A stretch of DNA of 64,000 nucleotides from Eubacteriales bacterium (GTDB lineage: Bacteria > Bacillota > Clostridia > Christensenellales > UBA1750): positions 4,300 to 68,299 of the forward strand of contig JAVBLU010000007.1 in the NCBI GenBank assembly GCA_031553225.1, read 5' to 3'. Of this stretch, positions 1,556 to 32,012 are shown one piece after another. Below the pieces are notes generated by a model, which saw only the letters and a program-made list of their open reading frames with translations, did no database searches and had not been told where the DNA came from. Position 1 is the first letter of the stretch; every line of letters starts with the position of its first letter. A program made the translations under genes and the position numbers.

Positions 1556-1728
1556 TGCGCGTCACCCCTTTTTTGATCATGCCCACATTATACATCGTCC
1601 GGCCGCAAAACAGAAGACCCCGGCCAACGCCGGGGCCTTATACCCGCGGAAGGGATGCGCGCGCCTTTATCACCAGGCGGCATACAGGCGTTACAGTTGC
1701 GCCTGGGGCTCCGGGGCCCGCCCGATCG

Positions 1729-1929
1729 TCAGTCCCGAACGATTTCGCGCTGCCGGAACAGCAGGGTGATGGACCACAGGCCCGCAAGCCCGATGACAGA
1801 GTAAACGATGCGGGAGAGAAGCATGGCCTGCCCGCCAAAGATAAAGGACACGAAGTCAAACTGGAACAGGCCCACGAGCAGCCAATTGACCGCGCCCAGA
1901 ATAACGAGCACCAAAGCAAACCGATCCAA
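1729..1929 (-). CDS. DUF378 (YuzA-like) small membrane protein
   Basis: LVILGAVNWLLVGLFQFDFV...SRIVYSVIGLAGLW signature; TTG start 10 nt after AAGGAG. Confidence 0.9.
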   Translation of the reverse strand: MDRFALVLVILGAVNWLLVGLFQFDFVSFIFGGQAMLLSRIVYSVIGLAGLWSITLLFRQREIVRD

Positions 1930-2020
1930 ACAAATGCATCTCCTTTGAACGTTTGCTTCTATGATGCCCCATCCGGTCGAAAATCCATACAAAATGGCGT
2001 TTGGGTGCATTTTCCATGCA

Positions 2021-4204
2021 CTACTTTCTGGGCCAGGCCGCAATAAGGGTGGCGACGAGCGCCACGCCCACGTCCGCGAACACGGCCATCCACATGCCCG
2101 CGAGCCCCAGCGCGCCCAGCAGCAATACGGCCGCCTTCACGCTGAGCGCCATGGCGATGTTGAAGGCCACAACGCGGCGCGTCTCCCGGGCGATGCGCAT
2201 AGCGTCGGGCAGGCGGCCGATATCGTCGGTCATCAGTACGATGTCCGCCGCCTCGATGGCCGCGTCCGATCCAAGCGCGCCCATGGCGATGCCCACATCC
2301 GCTGAGGCGAGCACCGGCGCGTCGTTGATGCCGTCGCCCACAAACGCCGTCACCGCGCCCTTCTCCTGCCCGGCCATGATGGCCTGCAGCCGTTCCACCT
2401 TGCCGCCGGGCAGCAGGTCGGCGTGCACCTCGTCCAGGGGCAGCCCTTCGGCCATGCGCAGGGCGATGGCCCGGCGGTCGCCGGTGAGCATGGCCATGCG
2501 ACGCACGCCCGCGCGGCGCAGGGCGAGCAGCGTTTCCTGCACGCCGCTCTTAAGCTCGTCGGCCACCACGATGTAGCCCAGGTACTGGCCGCCGCGGGCG
2601 ACATGCACCGCGCCCTCGCTCTCCTGCGGGCAGGCGACGCCCCGGTCGTTGAGCAGGCGGGCGGCTCCGACGATCGTCTCCTCGCCGTCCACCAGAGCGG
2701 ACACGCCCAGGCCGGCGTGCTCGGTCACGTTTTGCGCGCTTAGGCCGCTCTCCCCCGCCGCGGCGATCGCTTTGGCCACGGGGTGGGTGGAGAACCGCTC
2801 GCACGCCGCGGCGATGGCCAGAAGCGACTCGGGCGCAACGCCCTGCGCGCCGCGCACGTCCGTCACCTGCAGCGCCCCTTTGGTGAGGGTGCCGGTCTTG
2901 TCGAACACCAGCGTATGCAGGCGCGCCAGCGCTTCCAGGTAATTGCCGCCCTTGACGAGCACACCCCGGCGCGAGCACGCGCCGATGCCCGAAAAGAACC
3001 CCAGCGGTATGGAGATGACCAGCGCGCACGGGCAGGAAACAACCAGAAACACGAGCGCCCGGTTGAGCCACATGGCGAACGGCTGCCCGAAGAGGAGAGG
3101 CGGTATGGCCGCCAGCAACGCCGCCAAAGCGATGACCAGCGGCGTGTACACGCGCGAGAACCGGGTGATGAACTGCTCGGTGGGCGCTTTTTGCGCAGCG
3201 GCGTTCTGCACCATATCCAAAATGCGCGACATGGTGGACTCGGCAAAGGGCTTTTGCACGCGCGCGGTCAATACGGCGCTCTTGTTCACCGCGCCGGAGA
3301 GCAGGCTTCCGCCCGGCCCCACCTCGCGCGGCACGGATTCGCCGGTGAGCGCAGAGGTATCCAGCTGGGAGCGGCCGTCCGTCACCTCGCTGTCCAGCGG
3401 CACGCGTTCGCCCGGCCAAATGACGATGTTCTCGCCCACGGCCACGTCCTGCGCGGGCAGAAGCGTCTCCCGACCGCCGCGCAGTACGCGCGCGCGATCC
3501 GGCCGGATGTCCATCAGCGCGCGGATGGAGCGCATGGAGCGGCGCAGCGCGGCGTTTTGAAAGTACTCGCCCACCTGATAGAAGACCATAACGCCCACGG
3601 CCTCGGCATAGTCGCCCAGGGCGATAGCGCCCACCGTGGCGATGGCCATCAGGAAGTTTTCGTCGAACAAGCGGCCGCGCAGCGTGTTGCGCAGCGCGCG
3701 GTACAGCACGTCGTACCCGGCCAGCGCATAGGCGCACAGAAGCAGCGCCGTCCGGAGGGGCGCGGGCAGGGGAAGCGCCGCGCACGCGATGAGAAGCGCC
3801 AGTGCGACGCCCACGCGCGCCCAAAGCACGCCCACGCCGCGTGCGCCTCCTGCGCGGTCGCCGTCGTGAGCGCCGCCGTCTTCCTCCACGTGGTCGTGGG
3901 CGTGCCCGCGCGCGCCGTCCTGTCCGGCGTGGCTATGATCGCAGCCGCAGCCGCGCTCCGCAGACTCTGCGTCCGCCTCCTGGCCGCCGAAGCGCAGCGT
4001 GACGCCCGGTTCGCAGCGGCGCACCACGCTTATCATGCGCGCGCGCGTCTCCGGTTCCGCCCGGCCGGCCACCCCTTCGTAGATGAGCAGGTCGGCGGTG
4101 ATATCGATGTGCGCCCGCCGCACCGCGCCCGCGCGCACGAGTGCGTCGGATAGCTGGCTTGCGCAGTTCGGGCAGTCGACGCCCTTGATCGTGCACTGTG
4201 CCAT
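2021..4204 (-). CDS. cadA: Heavy-metal (Zn/Cd/Pb) P1B-type ATPase
   Basis: HMA motif GVDCPNC, His-rich linker, LTGES, SCPCAL, DKTGTLT and GDGINDAP; start reassigned to ATG at 4204 (MAQCTIKG). Confidence 0.95.
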   Translation of the reverse strand: MAQCTIKGVDCPNCASQLSDALVRAGAVRRAHIDITADLLIYEGVAGRAEPETRARMISVVRRCEPGVTLRFGGQEADAESAERGCGCDHSHAGQDGARGHAHDHVEEDGGAHDGDRAGGARGVGVLWARVGVALALLIACAALPLPAPLRTALLLCAYALAGYDVLYRALRNTLRGRLFDENFLMAIATVGAIALGDYAEAVGVMVFYQVGEYFQNAALRRSMRSIRALMDIRPDRARVLRGGRETLLPAQDVAVGENIVIWPGERVPLDSEVTDGRSQLDTSALTGESVPREVGPGGSLLSGAVNKSAVLTARVQKPFAESTMSRILDMVQNAAAQKAPTEQFITRFSRVYTPLVIALAALLAAIPPLLFGQPFAMWLNRALVFLVVSCPCALVISIPLGFFSGIGACSRRGVLVKGGNYLEALARLHTLVFDKTGTLTKGALQVTDVRGAQGVAPESLLAIAAACERFSTHPVAKAIAAAGESGLSAQNVTEHAGLGVSALVDGEETIVGAARLLNDRGVACPQESEGAVHVARGGQYLGYIVVADELKSGVQETLLALRRAGVRRMAMLTGDRRAIALRMAEGLPLDEVHADLLPGGKVERLQAIMAGQEKGAVTAFVGDGINDAPVLASADVGIAMGALGSDAAIEAADIVLMTDDIGRLPDAMRIARETRRVVAFNIAMALSVKAAVLLLGALGLAGMWMAVFADVGVALVATLIAAWPRK

Positions 4205-4209
4205 GCGCT

Positions 4210-4614
4210 TCACTCTCCCGTCTGTTCGCCGTCTTCGTCGGAGCCGTGCCGTTCCGTGATATGCGCGATGCCCTGCGCAAAGACCGTCTGCACGTGCTCG
4301 TCCATCAGCGCATAGGCGATCTGTTTCCCCTGCCGCCTTCCCTGCACCAGGCGCGCCTGCTTGAGGACGCGCAGCTGGTGCGACACGGCCGACTGGGTCA
4401 TGCCCAGGAACTCGGCGATGTGACACACGCATAACGGGCCGTCGCTTAGGGCGAACAGGATGCGCACGCGCGTGCTGTCGCCCAGCACGCGGTAAAAGTC
4501 CGACAGGTTGTACAGGGTCTCCTCTCCGGGCATGCGCTGGGCCAGCGCAGCCATGCGCGCCTCGTGCTCCGCGATGATGTGGCCGGGTTCGCCGCAGGCG
4601 CAGGTCTCCGTCAT
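4210..4614 (-). CDS. ArsR/SmtB-family metal-sensing repressor (CadC/ZiaR-like)
   Basis: GDSTRVRIL, LCVCHIA, SQSAVSHQLRVLKQARLV and an alpha5-type DEHV...AHITE site; ATG after GAGGTG. Confidence 0.92.
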   Translation of the reverse strand: MTETCACGEPGHIIAEHEARMAALAQRMPGEETLYNLSDFYRVLGDSTRVRILFALSDGPLCVCHIAEFLGMTQSAVSHQLRVLKQARLVQGRRQGKQIAYALMDEHVQTVFAQGIAHITERHGSDEDGEQTGE

Positions 4615-22086: not shown

Positions 22087-22918
22087 ACTGTCGCACCTGA
22101 CCAAAACGTATGCGCAGTGGCAGCGCAGCTTTCGCTTGAAGGATTTGGGCCGCAGCCTTCTGCGGCCGCAGACCAGGGAAGTACACGCCCTGCAGGACGT
22201 GAGCCTCACCGTGCGGCGCGGCGAGTTTGTGGCCTACGCGGGCCCGAACGGCGCGGGCAAATCCACCACCATGAAGCTGCTCAGCGGCATGCTCGCCCCC
22301 ACGAGCGGGGACGCCTACGCACTTGGCCTGCACCCGCGAAAGGCGCGCATCCAGCTGATGAAGCGCGCGGGCGTGTTGTTTGGCCAGCGCTCGGAGCTGT
22401 GGTGGGACCACCCGGTGGCCATGAGCTTTGAGTGGAAGCGCACGGTGTGGGACATCCCGCAGCACACCTACGAGCGCATGCGCGCCATGGTATGCGAGCT
22501 GCTGGGCCTTGGCCCCCTTATGCAAACCTTTGCCCGGGAGTTGTCGCTGGGCCAGCGCATGCGCTGTGATCTGGGCCTTCTGTTGCTGCACGAGCCGGAG
22601 CTGCTTTTGCTGGACGAACCCACGCTTGGCCTGGACGTGCTCGCCAAGCAGCAGCTGATCGCCTTTTTGAAGCACCTCCACAGGGAGGACGGCGTCACCA
22701 TCCTCGTCACCTCGCACGACATGGACGACCTGCAGGAGATGGCGCAGCGCCTTATTCTCATATCCGGCGGACGCATCGCCTTTGACGGCACGTTTGACGC
22801 GCTGCGCGGCGCAGCGCCCGCGCCGCTCACCGTGGAGCAAACCGTAACGCGCGGCGCGCCCATCGAGCAGGTCATCGCCTCGCTGTACCAGCGCTGGGCC
22901 AGCGAAGCCGCCACGTAG
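22037..22918 (+). CDS. ABC exporter ATP-binding protein (EvrA/COG4586-like)
   Basis: GPNGAGKST Walker A, LSLGQRMR signature, LLLLDEPT and VTSHDM; FGQRSELWWD family motif. Confidence 0.92.
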   Translation: MSASVRRATRAGDFAIELSHLTKTYAQWQRSFRLKDLGRSLLRPQTREVHALQDVSLTVRRGEFVAYAGPNGAGKSTTMKLLSGMLAPTSGDAYALGLHPRKARIQLMKRAGVLFGQRSELWWDHPVAMSFEWKRTVWDIPQHTYERMRAMVCELLGLGPLMQTFARELSLGQRMRCDLGLLLLHEPELLLLDEPTLGLDVLAKQQLIAFLKHLHREDGVTILVTSHDMDDLQEMAQRLILISGGRIAFDGTFDALRGAAPAPLTVEQTVTRGAPIEQVIASLYQRWASEAAT

Positions 22919-23060
22919 CCCGCCCCGCAACGACCAAAACCCCGCTTCGCGCATTTTGCGGCGGTCTGACCTGCGCCCCCCCTTCCCGGCGCGCGCCACG
23001 CGGCAAACCGCCGTGCGCGCCGCCAACTTGCGCCATTCGCCGCACGCCTCGCCGACACGC

Positions 23061-23099
23061 CGAAGGCCCGGCGGCGCTTACAGCGCCGCCGGGCCTTCG
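23061..23099. terminator. Long GC hairpin between convergent operons
   Basis: cgaaggcccggcggcgct-tac-agcgccgccgggccttcg. Confidence 0.75.
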
Positions 23100-23248
23100 C
23101 ATATTGAATCTTTGGTCCGCCCGCCCGTGGGAAACCGCTCTCCATTCCCCGTGCAGGATCCAAGGGACGCAATCTCCCGGCGGGTGGGCGGAGGGCTACG
23201 CCTTTCGCGCTGCGCAGCCGCTTCCGCGCCCTGTAACCCGCCGCGCCT

Positions 23249-25357
23249 CTATCCCCGCTCGGCGATGCGCGCGTTTGCGTGAATATGGCCGCCGCAGGAG
23301 CCTAAGATCCCGTCGATGACGGCGTTGGGCCCGATGTCGCCGTCCACGCGCCCAACGTTGCCGCGTACGCGCCCGTTGAAGCAGCCGCAGACGCGCTCGA
23401 CATTGCCGCCCACGCGGCCGTCCAGATCGCCTTTGATGACGCCCTTCACGTGACGGCCCACGTTGCCGCGCAGGGCGCCGCATACGTCGCCTTCCACATC
23501 GCCGCCCACGTTGCCGGTCAGATCGGCCTTCACGGATCCCCTCACGCTGCCGCCTACGTTGCCGCGCAGGCACCCGCCTATGTCGCCCTCCACGTTGCCG
23601 CCTACGCTGCCCAGCAGATCGCCCTTGACGCAGCCCTTGACGGAGCCGCCCATAGACCCGCTCATGATGCCGCCGATGTCGCCGTGTACGCTGCCGCCCA
23701 TTCGGCCTGCCATGTCGCCTCCGACGGATCCGCGCACATCGCCTCCAACCGCACCCACAATGCGGCCTTGCACGTTGCCCATAACCGACCCGGCCACCAT
23801 GCCCAGAAGGTCGCCGTCGATCTGCGGGAGATTGCCCGTTGTGTTGCCGGAGAAATGGCCGCCATCGTAGCGCGCGTTGGGCGTGTTGTGCAGGTGTGGG
23901 CCGCCGACGGCGCCGTGGAAGGGGAAACCTTCGCCCAGGCTGATGCGGATGTCCGGATGGACGTGCGCGTGGACCGGCCCGTGGCGGCGGCCCTCGCCTT
24001 CACGGCCGAAGAGCTCCACGCCCTCCGGGAACCCGCCGCCAATTTTGGCGCTGCGGTGAATGCGCCCTTCGCAGACTGCAAGCTTGCCATCAATAGTCGC
24101 CTCCGGTCCGATGTCGCCGCATACGCAGCCTACGTTTCCTTTTATTTTGCCGTTCAGGCACCCGCCGATGCGGGACACGTCGCTCTCTACAACGCCGTTC
24201 ACGTCGCCGTCGATCTCACCTGACACGCATTTCACGCGGCCGTTTACATCGCCTTCGATGCGGCCCTTCACCGTACCGCTCACAACGCCGTTCAGCTCGC
24301 CCTGTATGCTGCCGGTCACGTCGCCGCTCACCCGGCCGTTCAGATCGCCCTCGACGTTCCCTTCCACCGATCCGCCCACGATGCCGTTCAGATCACCCAT
24401 CACGTTGCCCTGAACCGCCAGACCCACCTTGCCGTTCAGGTCGCCGTGCAGGCTGCCCTTGAGCTCCTGAGCGACGATGCCGTTCAAGTCGCCGCAGACC
24501 TTGCCTTCCAGATAACCGCCGACTTTGCCGTTCAGGTCGCCGCAAACGTCGCCCTTCATGCAGCCGCCGATCGTGCCGTTTAGATCGCCGAGCACGTTGC
24601 CTTCCATATGGCCGGCGATTTTGCCGTTCATATCGGCGGAAACGTCGCCCTTCATATTGCCCAGAACCTGGCCGTCCAGATCGCCGGCTGCGTTGCCGTT
24701 CAGGTCGCCCTGCACAACCCCGTCGAAGCTTTCGGGCAGATCGCCTTGCATATCGCCGGAAATGAGATTCCCTTTGCGTTCGGCGCGCTCTTGCTGGCGC
24801 ATGCCGTGGCGCGCATGGCGCATGGCTCTGCCCGCTTCGCGTGCCGCGTCGCGGCCGATACGGGCGGCCTCGTGGGCGGCTCGCGCGGCCTCGCGGCCCA
24901 TCTCGTGCATGCTCTGATGGAAGTCCTGGCGGAAGTCCTCTTCCTCCCGCTCCTCACTCCGCACCGGCGGCACCGGCGGAACGGGAGGTACCGGCGGGAC
25001 CGGAGGCACGGGCGGGACCGGAGGCACGGGCGGAGAGGGCGGTGCGCTCGGTTCGGCCTGCCCGGGCGCGTCCTTGCGCTGCTGAAAGCCCCGCTTCATG
25101 TTTTGGGCCAGATCGCGGGCCATATCGCCCACATCGCGGCCAAAGCGCCCCATGTCGCGTCCGAACTTGTCCATATCCACGTAGAAGCCGGAACCGCGCT
25201 TCTTCTCGTTCTCCGGCCAGGGTTTTTTCGCGTCGGCCTGCTCCCATGCGGCGTCCTCGGGCTTGCCCTGCATGGCGGAGATCAGCTTATCCGCTTCCTC
25301 GGCGGAGAGGCGGCCCGCCTGCACTTCCTCCAGTATCTTTTTTAGCTGCTCATTCAT
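23249..25357 (-). CDS. 702-aa repeat protein: SHOCT/YvlB-like N-terminus, (PPV)8 linker, two Gly-rich tetrapeptide-repeat domains
   Basis: MNEQLKKILEEVQAGRLSAEEADKLISAM start; RBS GGAGGAGAAGG; ATG overlaps the DUF2089 stop; G-x-[VILM]-x repeats at 24032-24772 and 23249-23863. Confidence 0.85.
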   Translation of the reverse strand: MNEQLKKILEEVQAGRLSAEEADKLISAMQGKPEDAAWEQADAKKPWPENEKKRGSGFYVDMDKFGRDMGRFGRDVGDMARDLAQNMKRGFQQRKDAPGQAEPSAPPSPPVPPVPPVPPVPPVPPVPPVPPVRSEEREEEDFRQDFHQSMHEMGREAARAAHEAARIGRDAAREAGRAMRHARHGMRQQERAERKGNLISGDMQGDLPESFDGVVQGDLNGNAAGDLDGQVLGNMKGDVSADMNGKIAGHMEGNVLGDLNGTIGGCMKGDVCGDLNGKVGGYLEGKVCGDLNGIVAQELKGSLHGDLNGKVGLAVQGNVMGDLNGIVGGSVEGNVEGDLNGRVSGDVTGSIQGELNGVVSGTVKGRIEGDVNGRVKCVSGEIDGDVNGVVESDVSRIGGCLNGKIKGNVGCVCGDIGPEATIDGKLAVCEGRIHRSAKIGGGFPEGVELFGREGEGRRHGPVHAHVHPDIRISLGEGFPFHGAVGGPHLHNTPNARYDGGHFSGNTTGNLPQIDGDLLGMVAGSVMGNVQGRIVGAVGGDVRGSVGGDMAGRMGGSVHGDIGGIMSGSMGGSVKGCVKGDLLGSVGGNVEGDIGGCLRGNVGGSVRGSVKADLTGNVGGDVEGDVCGALRGNVGRHVKGVIKGDLDGRVGGNVERVCGCFNGRVRGNVGRVDGDIGPNAVIDGILGSCGGHIHANARIAERG
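24962..25033 (-). repeat. Eight tandem 9-bp units encoding (Pro-Pro-Val)8
   Basis: Units caccggcgg, caccggcgg, aacgggagg, taccggcgg, gaccggagg, cacgggcgg, gaccggagg, cacgggcgg, with synonymous variation. Confidence 0.95.
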
Positions 25358-25718
25358 GGTCCTTCTCCTCCGTCGTCAGCATGTTTAAGGCTTCCGTCAC
25401 ATCTATTTCGCCGTTTTGCAGGCGCTGCAGCGCGTCGCGCCGGGCGTTGACGGCGGGCTGGCCCAGGGCCTGGGCGATGTCGTCCAGACGGGCGCGCACA
25501 GTGGGATAGCTGATCCCCAGTTCCTTCTCCATATCGCGGATGTTGCCGCGGCAGCGGATGAAGCTGACGACGAAATCCTTTTGCGCTTCGTTTAAGGTGG
25601 CGAAACGGTCGACGGCGAACTCCCCTTCGATGGCCGTCCTGCAGGCGGGGCAGCGAAGTCGTTCAACCCGCAGACCGGACGCGCAGACGGGACAGGCGGA
25701 AATTGTGGCGTTTGGCAT
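25350..25718 (-). CDS. DUF2089-family Zn-ribbon/HTH protein
   Basis: CPVC...LRCPACRTAIEGEF and F...RGNIRDMEKELGISYPTVRARLD. Confidence 0.93.
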   Translation of the reverse strand: MPNATISACPVCASGLRVERLRCPACRTAIEGEFAVDRFATLNEAQKDFVVSFIRCRGNIRDMEKELGISYPTVRARLDDIAQALGQPAVNARRDALQRLQNGEIDVTEALNMLTTEEKDHE

Positions 25719-25950
25719 GCGAATCACTTTCCTTTTCCATTTGGTTTACGCCATTATCTTAGCACACGTCTAATAAAAGTCAATAGTCAAATTGAAATAT
25801 TCAATATTTATTTTGCAAGATCATGAAATTGCAATTCATAGTCATTCAAATTTCATTTAGTGAGATATTTTTTGTTCACATGGAGGACTTTTGCAGCTTG
25901 TATCGAATAGTCTTTCTTTATATCATGGGATATCGAGGAGGTCGTTGTAC

Positions 25951-27141
25951 ATGCAGCTGTCCAAGCGGGTAGCGGGCATCGCCCCGTCCATCACCCTGGA
26001 GATAGATGCCAAGGCGAAGGCCATGCAGGCGCAGGGCCTGGACGTGGTGGGCTTTGGGGCCGGCGAGCCGGACTTTGCCACCCCGTCCTTTATTCGGGAG
26101 GCAGGCAAGCAGGCCATCGACGCCGGCAAAACGAAATACACGCCCGCGTCCGGCGCGCCGGACCTGCGCGCCGCCGTGTGCGAGAAGCTGGCGCGCGACA
26201 ACGCTCTTGCCTACAAGCCCGAGCAGATCATCATCTCCAGCGGCGCGAAGCACTCGCTCTTCAACGCGTTCCAGGCGCTGATCAACGAAGGCGACGAGGT
26301 GATCATCCCCTCGCCCTGTTGGGTGAGCTATCCGGAGATGGTGCGTATGGCGGGCGGCGTGCCCGTGTTCGTGCCCGGCCTTGAGTGTGACGACTTCAAA
26401 CCCACCATCCAGGCAATCGCCGCGGCCGTGTCCCCCCGCACGCGCGCCTTCGTTCTGAACACGCCCAACAACCCCAACGGCCACGTGTACACGGCCGCCG
26501 AGCTCGCGGCCATCGCCGGCCTCGCCGCCACGCACGATTTCACCGTCGTATCCGACGAGATTTACGAGCTGCTCACCTATGATGGCGACTGCCCGCCCTC
26601 CATCGCCACGCTTCCGGGCATGATCGAGCGCACGGTGGTGGTCAACGGCGTGTCCAAGGCCTACGCCATGACCGGCTGGCGCATCGGGTACACGGCCTCG
26701 CCGCTGCCGCTTGCCAAGGCCATGGGCAACTTCCAAAGCCACGCCACTTCCGCCCCCGCCACCATGTGCCAGGCTGCGGCCACCGCGGCCCTGCGCGGGT
26801 CCATGGACGAGGCCATCGCCATGAAGGCCGAGTTCGACCGCCGCCGCCGCCTCATCCATGGCCTGATCAACGCCGTCCCCGGCCTTTCCGCCCGCTTGCC
26901 AGCCGGTGCGTTTTATATTATGATGAACATATCCGCCGTTTTGGGCAAAAGCTACGAAGGGCGCGCCATCAAGGGCTCCATGGATTTTGCAGACGCCCTG
27001 CTGCAGGGCGAGCAGTGCGCCGTGGTGCCCGGCCTTGCCTTTGAAGCCGACGCCTACTGCCGCCTGTCCTACGCCACCTCATTACAAAACATCGAAAAGG
27101 GCCTTGCCCGCATCGCCGCTTTTGTGGGCAAACTGAAATAG
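25951..27141 (+). CDS. Class I PLP aminotransferase (aspartate aminotransferase-like)
   Basis: GAGEPDF, SGAKHSL, NTPNNPNG, SDEIYE, NGVSKAYAMTGWRIGY and GAFY. Confidence 0.93.
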   Translation: MQLSKRVAGIAPSITLEIDAKAKAMQAQGLDVVGFGAGEPDFATPSFIREAGKQAIDAGKTKYTPASGAPDLRAAVCEKLARDNALAYKPEQIIISSGAKHSLFNAFQALINEGDEVIIPSPCWVSYPEMVRMAGGVPVFVPGLECDDFKPTIQAIAAAVSPRTRAFVLNTPNNPNGHVYTAAELAAIAGLAATHDFTVVSDEIYELLTYDGDCPPSIATLPGMIERTVVVNGVSKAYAMTGWRIGYTASPLPLAKAMGNFQSHATSAPATMCQAAATAALRGSMDEAIAMKAEFDRRRRLIHGLINAVPGLSARLPAGAFYIMMNISAVLGKSYEGRAIKGSMDFADALLQGEQCAVVPGLAFEADAYCRLSYATSLQNIEKGLARIAAFVGKLK

Positions 27142-29643: not shown

Positions 29644-30765
29644 ATGCAGATGATCGATCCGCGTATGACCAAGCTGGCGGACACGCTTGTGACCTACTCG
29701 TGCAAGCTTTGCCCCGGCGAGCGCGTGCTCATTGAAAACACAGGCATAGAGAGCGACATGGTGGCCGAGCTGGTGCGCGCGGCGTACAGGGCCGGGGCGC
29801 AGCCCTTCGTATGGCTGCGCGACCCCAAGGTGCAACGCGCGCTGCTTATGGGCGCGCCCTGCGAACAGCTGGACCACATGGCCGAGCACGACGGCGCGTT
29901 CATGAAAACCATGCAGGCGTACATCGGCCTGCGCTCGCCGGACAACGCCTGCGAGAGCGCCGACGTGCCGGGCGCAAAACAGGACGAATACGCCCGGCGC
30001 TACGCAAAGCCCGTACACTCGCAAATACGCGTGCCGCAAACCAAGTGGGTGGTGCTGCGCTACCCCACCCCCTCCATGGCGCAGTCGGCCGGGCGGTCCA
30101 CGGAGGATTTCGAGCAGTTCTACTTCGACGTGTGCACGATGGATTACGCGGCCATGTCCCGCGCCATGGACCCGCTTGTGGCGCTTATGCAGCGCACGGA
30201 CAAGGTGCGCATCACCGCGCCGGGCACGGATTTGACCTTCTCCATCAAGGGGATACCGGCGGTGAAGTGCGACGGGCAGTGCAACATCCCCGACGGCGAG
30301 GTGTACACCGCCCCGGTTCGGGAAAGCGTGCAGGGCACGCTGCGCTACAACACGCCCACCGTGCACTCGGGGATAACGCACGAGGGCGTAACGCTGCGCT
30401 TTGAGCGCGGCAAAATCGTGGAGGCATCCTCCAGCAACACCGCCGAGTTGACCCGCGTGTTGGACACGGACGAGGGCAGCCGGTACGTGGGCGAGTTCGC
30501 CATCGGCGTGAACCCCTACATTCACCACGCCATGAAGGACACCCTTTTCGACGAGAAAATCGCCGGATCCTTCCATTTCACGCCGGGCAACTGCTACGAT
30601 GAAGCGCCCAACGGCAACAAATCCGCCATCCACTGGGACATGGTGCTCATCCAAACCCCGGCGTACGGCGGGGGCGAAATGTACTTCGACGGCGTGCTGG
30701 TCCGGCGGGACGGCCAGTTCGTTTTGCCTGAACTGCTCGGATTGAACCCCGACCAGCTGCGGTAA
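29644..30765 (+). CDS. M29 aminopeptidase (AmpS/PepS-like)
   Basis: GTDLTFS, NIPDGEVYTAP, GEFAIG, TLFDEKI.GSFH and SAIHWDMV. Confidence 0.93.
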   Translation: MQMIDPRMTKLADTLVTYSCKLCPGERVLIENTGIESDMVAELVRAAYRAGAQPFVWLRDPKVQRALLMGAPCEQLDHMAEHDGAFMKTMQAYIGLRSPDNACESADVPGAKQDEYARRYAKPVHSQIRVPQTKWVVLRYPTPSMAQSAGRSTEDFEQFYFDVCTMDYAAMSRAMDPLVALMQRTDKVRITAPGTDLTFSIKGIPAVKCDGQCNIPDGEVYTAPVRESVQGTLRYNTPTVHSGITHEGVTLRFERGKIVEASSSNTAELTRVLDTDEGSRYVGEFAIGVNPYIHHAMKDTLFDEKIAGSFHFTPGNCYDEAPNGNKSAIHWDMVLIQTPAYGGGEMYFDGVLVRRDGQFVLPELLGLNPDQLR

Positions 30766-30772
30766 GTTCTCA

Positions 30773-30790
30773 TTGTGAGAAATTTAACAA
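30773..30790. promoter_or_regulatory. Putative Rex operator upstream of gap
   Basis: TTGTGAG-AAAT-TTAACAA versus consensus TTGT(G/T)AA-N4-TT(A/C)ACAA. Confidence 0.6.
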
Positions 30791-30798
30791 TTGAGCCC

Positions 30799-30827
30799 TT
30801 GCCTTCGAGAATAAAAGAAGGTAGAAT
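30799..30827 (+). promoter_or_regulatory. sigmaA promoter of gap
   Basis: TTGCCT-17 nt-TAGAAT. Confidence 0.7.
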
Positions 30828-30857
30828 AGGCACGATGTTCTAATAGGTCCATACTAA

Positions 30858-31883
<1,026 letters not shown>

Positions 31884-31897
31884 CAGCTACAGCGCAT

Positions 31898-31925
31898 GGG
31901 CGCCCCTCCGGCCGGAGGGGCGCCC
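31898..31925. terminator. Perfect 28-bp palindrome after gap
   Basis: gggcgcccctccgg|ccggaggggcgccc. Confidence 0.65.
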
Positions 31926-32012
31926 GTTCTTACGCCGCCCAAAAAGGCGGCGCGCCCGTCCGGCGCCCGGCCGCGTTTTTTGCAAATGCCGCCGGGCGTG
32001 TGGAATTTGGGC

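Follow-up and report, generated by a model that had tools for sequence, protein, structure and literature searches.

A DUF2089 regulator gene operonic with a gene for a SHOCT-like, G-x-[VLIM]-x β-solenoid protein in a Christensenellales genome

We analysed a two-gene operon in a 64,000-nucleotide stretch (the window) of the Eubacteriales bacterium assembly GCA_031553225.1 (order Christensenellales; contig JAVBLU010000007.1, forward-strand positions 4,300 to 68,299). Coordinates are those of the window unless another locus is named, and the operon and all its features lie on the reverse (-) strand. The first gene (25350..25727) encodes a DUF2089 protein, and the second (23249..25357) encodes a 702-residue protein, hereafter the partner, which starts with a SHOCT-like helical hairpin and ends in two β-solenoid modules. 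We read the pair, with middling confidence, as a self-contained, transcribed regulator-partner module, in which the partner would dock onto the DUF2089 protein through a hairpin that both share, tuning transcription. The domain content of the two proteins, the homology of their hairpins, the conserved gene order, independent fusions of DNA-binding domains to the same solenoid repeat, and transcription of the locus were all observed; DNA binding, docking between the hairpins, autoregulation and any signal are what we infer from them.

The DUF2089 open reading frame (ORF) encodes 125 residues when counted from a GTG at 25727, or 122 from an alternative ATG at 25718. A Shine-Dalgarno sequence (GGAAAAGGAAAG, 25727-25738) abuts and overlaps the GTG and lies 6 nucleotides (nt) upstream of the ATG; because of this placement relative to both starts, we favour the ATG. 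Two Pfam models (PF22747 and PF09862) match the protein above their curated cut-offs, bearing out its original description as a zinc-ribbon and helix-turn-helix (HTH) protein. The zinc ribbon (about 25599-25694; Zn_ribbon_DUF2089, 53.8 bits against a cut-off of 27.6) has the CxxC...CxxC arrangement, and its four cysteines are invariant in the alignment, while the HTH domain occupies about 25461-25595 (DUF2089-HTH, 78.4 bits against 33.4). An AlphaFold2 model built with ten homologues shows a two-stranded ribbon (a β-hairpin), a three-helix HTH (helices within residues 44-84) and a C-terminal helical hairpin (helices 90-101 and 107-119). This last element, at about 25362-25442, is probably SHOCT-like, with a weak Pfam match at residues 100-119. 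We conclude that the DUF2089 protein is most likely a DNA-binding transcription factor, which would act at least on its own promoter.

The partner is built from a hairpin, a linker and two solenoids. Its residues 4-34 (25256..25348) match SHOCT-like_DUF2089-C (PF22746, a 32-residue bihelical model; 27.1 bits against a threshold of 27, E 3e-6), and AlphaFold2 places helices at residues 2-13 and 19-31 with a predicted local distance difference test score (pLDDT) of 93-96. The same Pfam model matches 7 of 20 relatives at E<=0.01. The linker that follows (24779..25174), delineated from the AlphaFold2 model and the sequence, contains a helix at residues 62-96 corresponding to an amphipathic DMDKFGRD... 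segment, eight consecutive PPV repeats at residues 109-132, and an Ala/Arg-rich helix of 58 residues (136-193); in the relatives, an acidic low-complexity linker and a helix are found at the equivalent place. Two solenoid modules make up the remainder: module A (residues 197-440; 24038..24769; cap GDIGPEATIDGKLAVCEGRIHRSAKI; pLDDT up to 96) and module B (residues 513-702; 23249..23821, including the stop codon; cap GDIGPNAVIDGILGSCGGHIHANARI; pLDDT 80-90). Between them lies a His/Gly/Pro-rich stretch (residues 441-512; 23822..24037) that is predicted to be disordered (pLDDT 27-50).

Both modules consist of G-x-[VLIM]-x repeats (GxVx for short). The first position of the four-residue period is glycine in 38/42 cases in module A and 33/37 in module B, the third is V, L, I or M in both, and a 16-residue super-period is superimposed (autocorrelation 0.41-0.48). 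This regularity is far beyond chance. The modules are paralogous (44% identical, E 1e-39) and share the cap GDIGPxAxIDGxL...IH..A.I. The partner contains neither a transmembrane helix nor a signal-peptide core (the highest 19-residue Kyte-Doolittle mean is 1.06), and the DUF2089 protein likewise has no transmembrane segment. Every element that the original prediction had seen in the repeat protein, namely the SHOCT-like first helices, the amphipathic helix, the (PPV)8 stretch, the Ala/Arg helix and the lack of membrane or export signals, was thus confirmed.

The hairpin is common to the two proteins. When the C-terminal hairpins of the regulators were aligned with the N-terminal hairpins of the partners, profile against profile, they proved homologous (hhalign probability 93.9%, E 1.5e-7, 28 columns). 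The two sets have different flavours, with ..L.RGEIT.E.A.. in the regulators and ..IL.AVA.G.L[ST]PEEAD.. in the partners.

The pairing of the two genes is also conserved, as had been predicted. We surveyed 41 related genomes, reading gene neighbourhoods from wider fetched regions, and found the repeat protein in 13, most of them from the window genome's own family. These relatives are Christensenellales (Ca. Spyradocola, Catabacter and Christensenella sp. UBA7102; loci L015-L024). At all nine of the relatives' loci with enough flanking DNA, the gene immediately upstream, in the same orientation, is a DUF2089 gene (49-55% identical); another two loci run off the ends of their contigs. The DUF2089 gene is followed by one or, usually, two paralogous genes, whose products each have a SHOCT-like N-terminus and an acidic linker, with GxVx repeats and the same cap after them. 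Two more distant metagenome proteins with a SHOCT-like hairpin and GxVx repeats (P0053 and P0022) are encoded 20-33 nt behind a DUF2089 gene, so that every such protein with readable upstream DNA (nine Christensenellales loci and two metagenome contigs) directly follows DUF2089. A conserved third component, such as a membrane protein or a sigma factor, was considered and rejected; across ten compared loci, only DUF2089 and the solenoid gene or genes are common to all, and no PspA, PspC, LiaF, transmembrane protein or sigma factor forms part of the unit.

Further evidence comes from proteins in which the same repeat is joined directly to an HTH domain. P0001 and P0002 carry an N-terminal XRE-type HTH fused to the GxVx repeat, with an Arg-rich helix before the repeat as in the window protein, and P0044 starts with the same XRE-like sequence as judged by eye. 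In P0057, the same repeat is fused to a C-terminal HTH_23/HTH_7 domain. P0001 is encoded by a stand-alone gene. Independent fusions of this kind are classic Rosetta-stone evidence that solenoid and HTH work together. These stand-alone proteins (P0001, P0002, P0044, with locus L027 6001-7197, and P0057) seem to form a class of one-component regulators, as yet without a name, that carry a β-solenoid domain.

At the junction of the two genes, the DUF2089 stop codon overlaps the partner's start by 8 nt (25350..25357, ATGAATGA; ATG at 25355-25357). The partner's ribosome-binding site (GGAGGAGAAGG, 25361-25371) lies 4 nt upstream of the ATG, within the coding end of DUF2089. The predicted overlap was therefore found as described, with the correction that it is specific to this genome; the relatives show gaps of 13-40 nt. 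The operon is flanked by a convergent ABC exporter gene and a divergent aminotransferase gene. We looked for an intrinsic terminator after the operon and found none.

The operon is represented in one invertebrate-gut metatranscriptome, where 59% of its sampled words are present. Contigs of 99+% identity tile positions 23110-25701, and one of them (25270-25539) crosses the DUF2089/partner junction; the adjacent regions 22600-23095 and 25710-26300 have no contig coverage. Over the operon the depth is about 3-4, among the lower values for the organism in this sample, with many other window genes at 10-35. These data support the view that the two genes form a genuine unit, transcribed together and expressed at a basal level in vivo. 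In the same metatranscriptome, positions 30673-32006 of the window reach a word depth of 1600-4300, compared with 3-35 elsewhere, with many contigs only 95-99% identical; the likely source is a conserved gene with high expression, in which reads of several organisms are pooled.

Upstream of DUF2089 lies a sigma-70-type promoter-like site, TTGACT-16-(TG)TAAGAT (25783..25756), with 9/12 matches and an extended -10 TG. The TTGAC..TGnTAnnnT layout recurs in the relatives. An AT-rich palindrome (AAATATTgAATATTT, 25795..25809) is located 12 nt upstream of the -35 hexamer, within the interval noted for AT-rich inverted repeats (25795-25856). Most of the 12 DUF2089 promoters that we examined have an AT-rich inverted repeat a few base pairs (bp) upstream of a near-consensus TTGAC -35 element; it is weaker, more distal or absent in L016, L110, L111 and the window genome's own paralogue, L026. 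The palindrome is a candidate operator for autoregulation, or possibly a structural element. Among the relatives, the Spyradocola-type loci have AT-rich inverted repeats with arms of 12-16 bp; in L015 (8199-8378), L017 (7626-7805), L020 (4608-4787) and L023 (7757-7936), the repeats end 3-8 bp upstream of the -35 element, and the arms covary between genomes by compensatory changes.

The window genome encodes both solenoid modules in a single chain that has one hairpin, whereas the relatives encode them as separate genes, each with its own hairpin. In L015 (6409-6415) and L023 (5955-5961), the two solenoid paralogues share a reading frame, with nothing but a stop codon and one further codon between them, making stop loss a simple route to fusion. 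This arrangement suggests that the 702-residue gene arose in this way from a pair of adjacent solenoid paralogues. The fusion does not stem from misassembly, as neither the DNA run nor the RNA contigs have an indel here. We searched all frames of the inter-module linker for a remnant of a second SHOCT hairpin and found none. The linker's GFPEG/GFPFHG motifs faintly resemble the G[AVI]PFE motifs in the linker of the relatives' second gene.

To place the partner among those of other DUF2089 proteins, we drew on a scan of species genomes that yielded more than 500 DUF2089 loci; the downstream gene was read in the best 80, and 51 downstream proteins of at least 95 residues, from diverse bacteria, were counted as partners. 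The automatic choice of downstream gene (first start codon per frame) missed several Christensenellales partners, and those loci were read by hand. Toastrack (DUF4097) was found in 26/51 partners and SHOCT-like_DUF2089-C in 24/51, verifying the rule, given in the original prediction, that genes for SHOCT-like or DUF4097 proteins usually follow DUF2089. The partner at L043 (SHOCT 3-33, DUF4097 156-395) has the same hairpin-linker-β-helix layout as the window protein, with Toastrack as its final domain. In several Chloroflexota loci (L047, L073, L088, L097 and others), the Toastrack partners instead have a C-terminal SHOCT-like hairpin (consensus RLxxLRALERGxxDxxxAxRRL), and their genes overlap DUF2089 by 4 nt. 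Taken with the counts of Toastrack and SHOCT-like partners, this position in the Chloroflexota indicates that the hairpin is the recurrent element of most partners and the β-helix the variable one. DUF2089 also occurs in Bacteroides, Thermus, Deinococcus and Thermotoga.

The window genome contains a second DUF2089 operon, of the classical type (G000:C43:9379-12946; locus L026 6379-9946). In order, it encodes DUF2089, a 163-residue SHOCT-like protein, a Phage_holin_4_2 (YvlD-family) membrane protein, an extracytoplasmic function (ECF) sigma factor, a small ORF and a double-zinc-ribbon membrane protein.

The window protein's solenoid belongs to a different family from Toastrack. Neither it nor 19 relatives match the Toastrack/DUF4097 Pfam model (PF13349), and in profile-profile alignments (hhalign) against 15 Toastrack partners of DUF2089, the SHOCT-like hairpin alone aligns. 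Given this lack of detectable homology and the layout shared with L043, the original suggestion that another solenoid stands in the place of DUF4097 is supported. AlphaFold2, run with 19 homologues, confidently models modules A and B as regular single-chain β-solenoids. Foldseek found no match in the PDB at E<=1e-3; the best was 3p4g, a Ca-dependent antifreeze β-helix (E 0.01, TM-score 0.15-0.26), and with matches this weak, no solved structure can be named as the fold. Among the top PDB matches by sequence, an ARID protein and a pyridoxal kinase were discarded as products of low-complexity GQMP/GHMN repeats. The repeat domain is a β-helix of an unnamed family; on the modelling, it may be either a monomer or an intertwined trimer.

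The GxVx repeat itself is widespread. An exhaustive protein search recovered it in 859 representative clusters (hits P0011-P0160), including giant proteins of up to 3954 residues; a word-indexed search, its word filter overwhelmed by the repeat, gave two good matches. On the family members tested, the repeat scored below the cut-off of every curated Pfam model. Several of the scanned repeat proteins were labelled by Pfam solely through spurious Gly-zipper matches, which we rejected on the distant repeat proteins as artefacts of periodicity.

We propose that the module might work as follows. The second gene would be made in step with the first through the overlapping stop and start codons. The partner, a presumably cytoplasmic protein whose solenoid holds the place that Toastrack has in most DUF2089 operons, would dock its N-terminal hairpin onto the C-terminal hairpin of DUF2089. 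Depending on the state of the solenoid, this bulky and possibly self-associating protein could then hold, release or co-activate the regulator. A more far-reaching version, which we think unlikely, is that G-x-[VLIM]-x β-solenoids are an unrecognised input or assembly domain of transcription factors, either fused to an HTH (XRE, HTH_23) or plugged in through a SHOCT-like "docking code". A self-associating solenoid would then sequester and release DUF2089, forming a membrane-independent switch that responds to polymer state.

Several points weigh against the regulator-partner module. The partner's SHOCT-like match is marginal, sitting at the Pfam threshold (27.1 versus 27), and the regulator's own C-terminal match is weak in this genome (E 0.15). 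The inverted-repeat arms of the relatives change together, which fits a hairpin structure equally well as an operator. Transcription was seen only via assembled metatranscriptome contigs, which may contain DNA, are silent on regulation and measure expression poorly. The solenoid was modelled as a monomer, and profile matches to the T4 gp5 triple β-helix (E about 1e-5) keep a trimeric fibre possible. Finally, none of the papers found reports experiments on a DUF2089 protein, be it on interactions, DNA binding or phenotype, and those other than the domain analysis of Ravi et al. (2024, mSystems, PMC11237479) list DUF2089 as unknown.

The alternative that survives best, possible though on balance rather improbable, is that the solenoid is structural cargo: a bactofilin-like cytoskeletal or scaffold polymer with a cellular job of its own, whose gene DUF2089 merely switches, the hairpin serving self-assembly or membrane attachment instead of docking onto the regulator. 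The Bactofilin model (PF04519) gives sub-threshold matches in 4/20 family members (best 23.9 bits, E 5e-5, against a cut-off of 27.9), the family profile matches BacA (2n3d) at E 0.012, and the 18-residue repeats of the relatives' second gene recall the windings of bactofilins. Membrane attachment would fit the role predicted for SHOCT-like hairpins, that of tethering domains beneath the membrane (Ravi et al., 2024, PMC11237479). However, every member falls short of the Bactofilin cut-off, and for the window protein the model gives no match at all. The repeated HTH fusions of the same repeat argue that the solenoid is part of a regulatory device, and the presence of the hairpin in both regulator and partner also speaks against mere cargo.

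A less probable reading, and quite a doubtful one at this locus, is that of the original prediction: the pair would sense envelope stress or antimicrobial peptides in the manner of LiaX/YvlB, and the solenoid would be what detects membrane damage. DUF2089 contexts with Toastrack, LiaI-LiaF-TM, B-box, PspC and sigma factors have been proposed as possible lia-like systems (Ravi et al., 2024, PMC11237479), and membrane-active peptides induce the Psp-like operons that encode the Toastrack proteins YvlB and LiaX. The other DUF2089 locus of this genome also lies beside genes for an ECF sigma factor and a holin-family membrane protein of the YvlD type. Yet the operon studied here lacks membrane, PspA/PspC/LiaF and sigma components, nor do the relatives have a conserved one. 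Neither protein has a transmembrane segment, and the solenoid is not a Toastrack. The stress role is borrowed from Toastrack contexts and is not supported here. Of the proposed regulator/sensor pair, the conserved regulator-partner pairing stands, but "sensor" is one possibility among several; likewise, the likeness to LiaX/YvlB is real in the SHOCT-like hairpin and goes no further.

It is very unlikely that the solenoid is an intertwined homotrimeric fibre of the T4 gp5 or phage tail-fibre type, as a domesticated phage module. Profile matches to the gp5 C-terminal triple β-helix among PDB chains are sub-threshold (E 9e-6 to 7e-5), as are those to Gp5_trimer_C (PF22178) in 7/20 members; the window protein scores 19 bits against a cut-off of 30.9, and the best relative (E 1.8e-6) also falls below it. 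The tail-fibre domain Mtd_N was found in 2/10 scanned repeat proteins (P0065 and P0083), with tail-fibre-like N-termini seen by eye in many others. Foldseek matches to fibre proteins among viral models point the same way, but with TM-scores of 0.07-0.17, we set them aside as uninformative. Against a fibre, all gp5-type matches lie below curated cut-offs, AlphaFold2 gives a confident single-chain solenoid, no phage genes surround the operon, and the SHOCT hairpin and DUF2089 linkage are cellular features. A trimeric state would in any case be compatible with the regulatory model. As for the partner ORF being a chance open frame, several long overlapping ORFs do occur on both strands of this 65% GC region, but the idea is effectively refuted by protein-level conservation across genomes (including P0053, a metagenome homologue of different composition), the strict four-residue period, the confident fold and the RNA coverage.

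DUF2089 regulators are widespread, and the window operon, a rare variant, is the simplest form of the system: a regulator, a single soluble partner and no membrane protein. This makes it a convenient entry point for asking whether the SHOCT-like hairpin acts as a protein-protein docking tag and what effect a β-helical partner has on a transcription factor. Natural controls are at hand in the split two-gene versions and the direct HTH-solenoid fusions. The GxVx repeat is moreover a large unnamed family that is also found in phage fibre proteins.

Among known systems, the closest are the DUF2089-SHOCT/Toastrack operons catalogued by Ravi et al. (2024, PMC11237479), who divided DUF2089 into zinc-ribbon, HTH and SHOCT-like parts. 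The regulator described here has the same zinc ribbon and HTH and probably the same SHOCT-like part, and the operons share a hairpin-tagged partner ending in a β-helical domain, tight operon linkage, and a characterisation that comes from comparative genomics. In the window, however, the β-helix is a G-x-[VLIM]-x solenoid with no detectable Toastrack homology, two modules are fused, and LiaI-LiaF-TM, PspC, B-box and sigma-factor genes are absent. The three-gene version in other Christensenellales (L015-L024) is built entirely of parts from the same families, with the cap GDIxxGAxIxGxV and the same promoter layout; the window genome differs from it in having one 702-residue protein, a single hairpin and a new His/Gly-rich linker.

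LiaX of Enterococcus and YvlB of B. subtilis also have an N-terminal SHOCT-like helical part followed by a β-helical domain, and lack a transmembrane segment. Their β-helix is a Toastrack, however, their operons (liaXYZ and yvlABCD) include PspC-like and holin-like membrane proteins, and they are controlled by LiaR or sigma-W rather than DUF2089. Bactofilins (PF04519; BacA, PDB 2n3d) are likewise cytoplasmic, Gly/Val-rich, right-handed β-helices, with windings of 18 residues like those of the relatives' second gene, but the period in the window protein is 16 (4x4). The β-helix of T4 gp5 and the GxVx repeats of tail fibres show a similar Gly-hydrophobic periodicity, with an 8-residue period; gp5, though, is an intertwined trimer in the virion, while the window protein is cellular and tied to a transcription factor. 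The association of DUF2089 with SHOCT-tagged β-helical partners is already catalogued by comparative genomics, and what is new is the GxVx solenoid partner, found mainly in one Christensenellales family, its fused double-module form, and the recurrent HTH-solenoid fusions.

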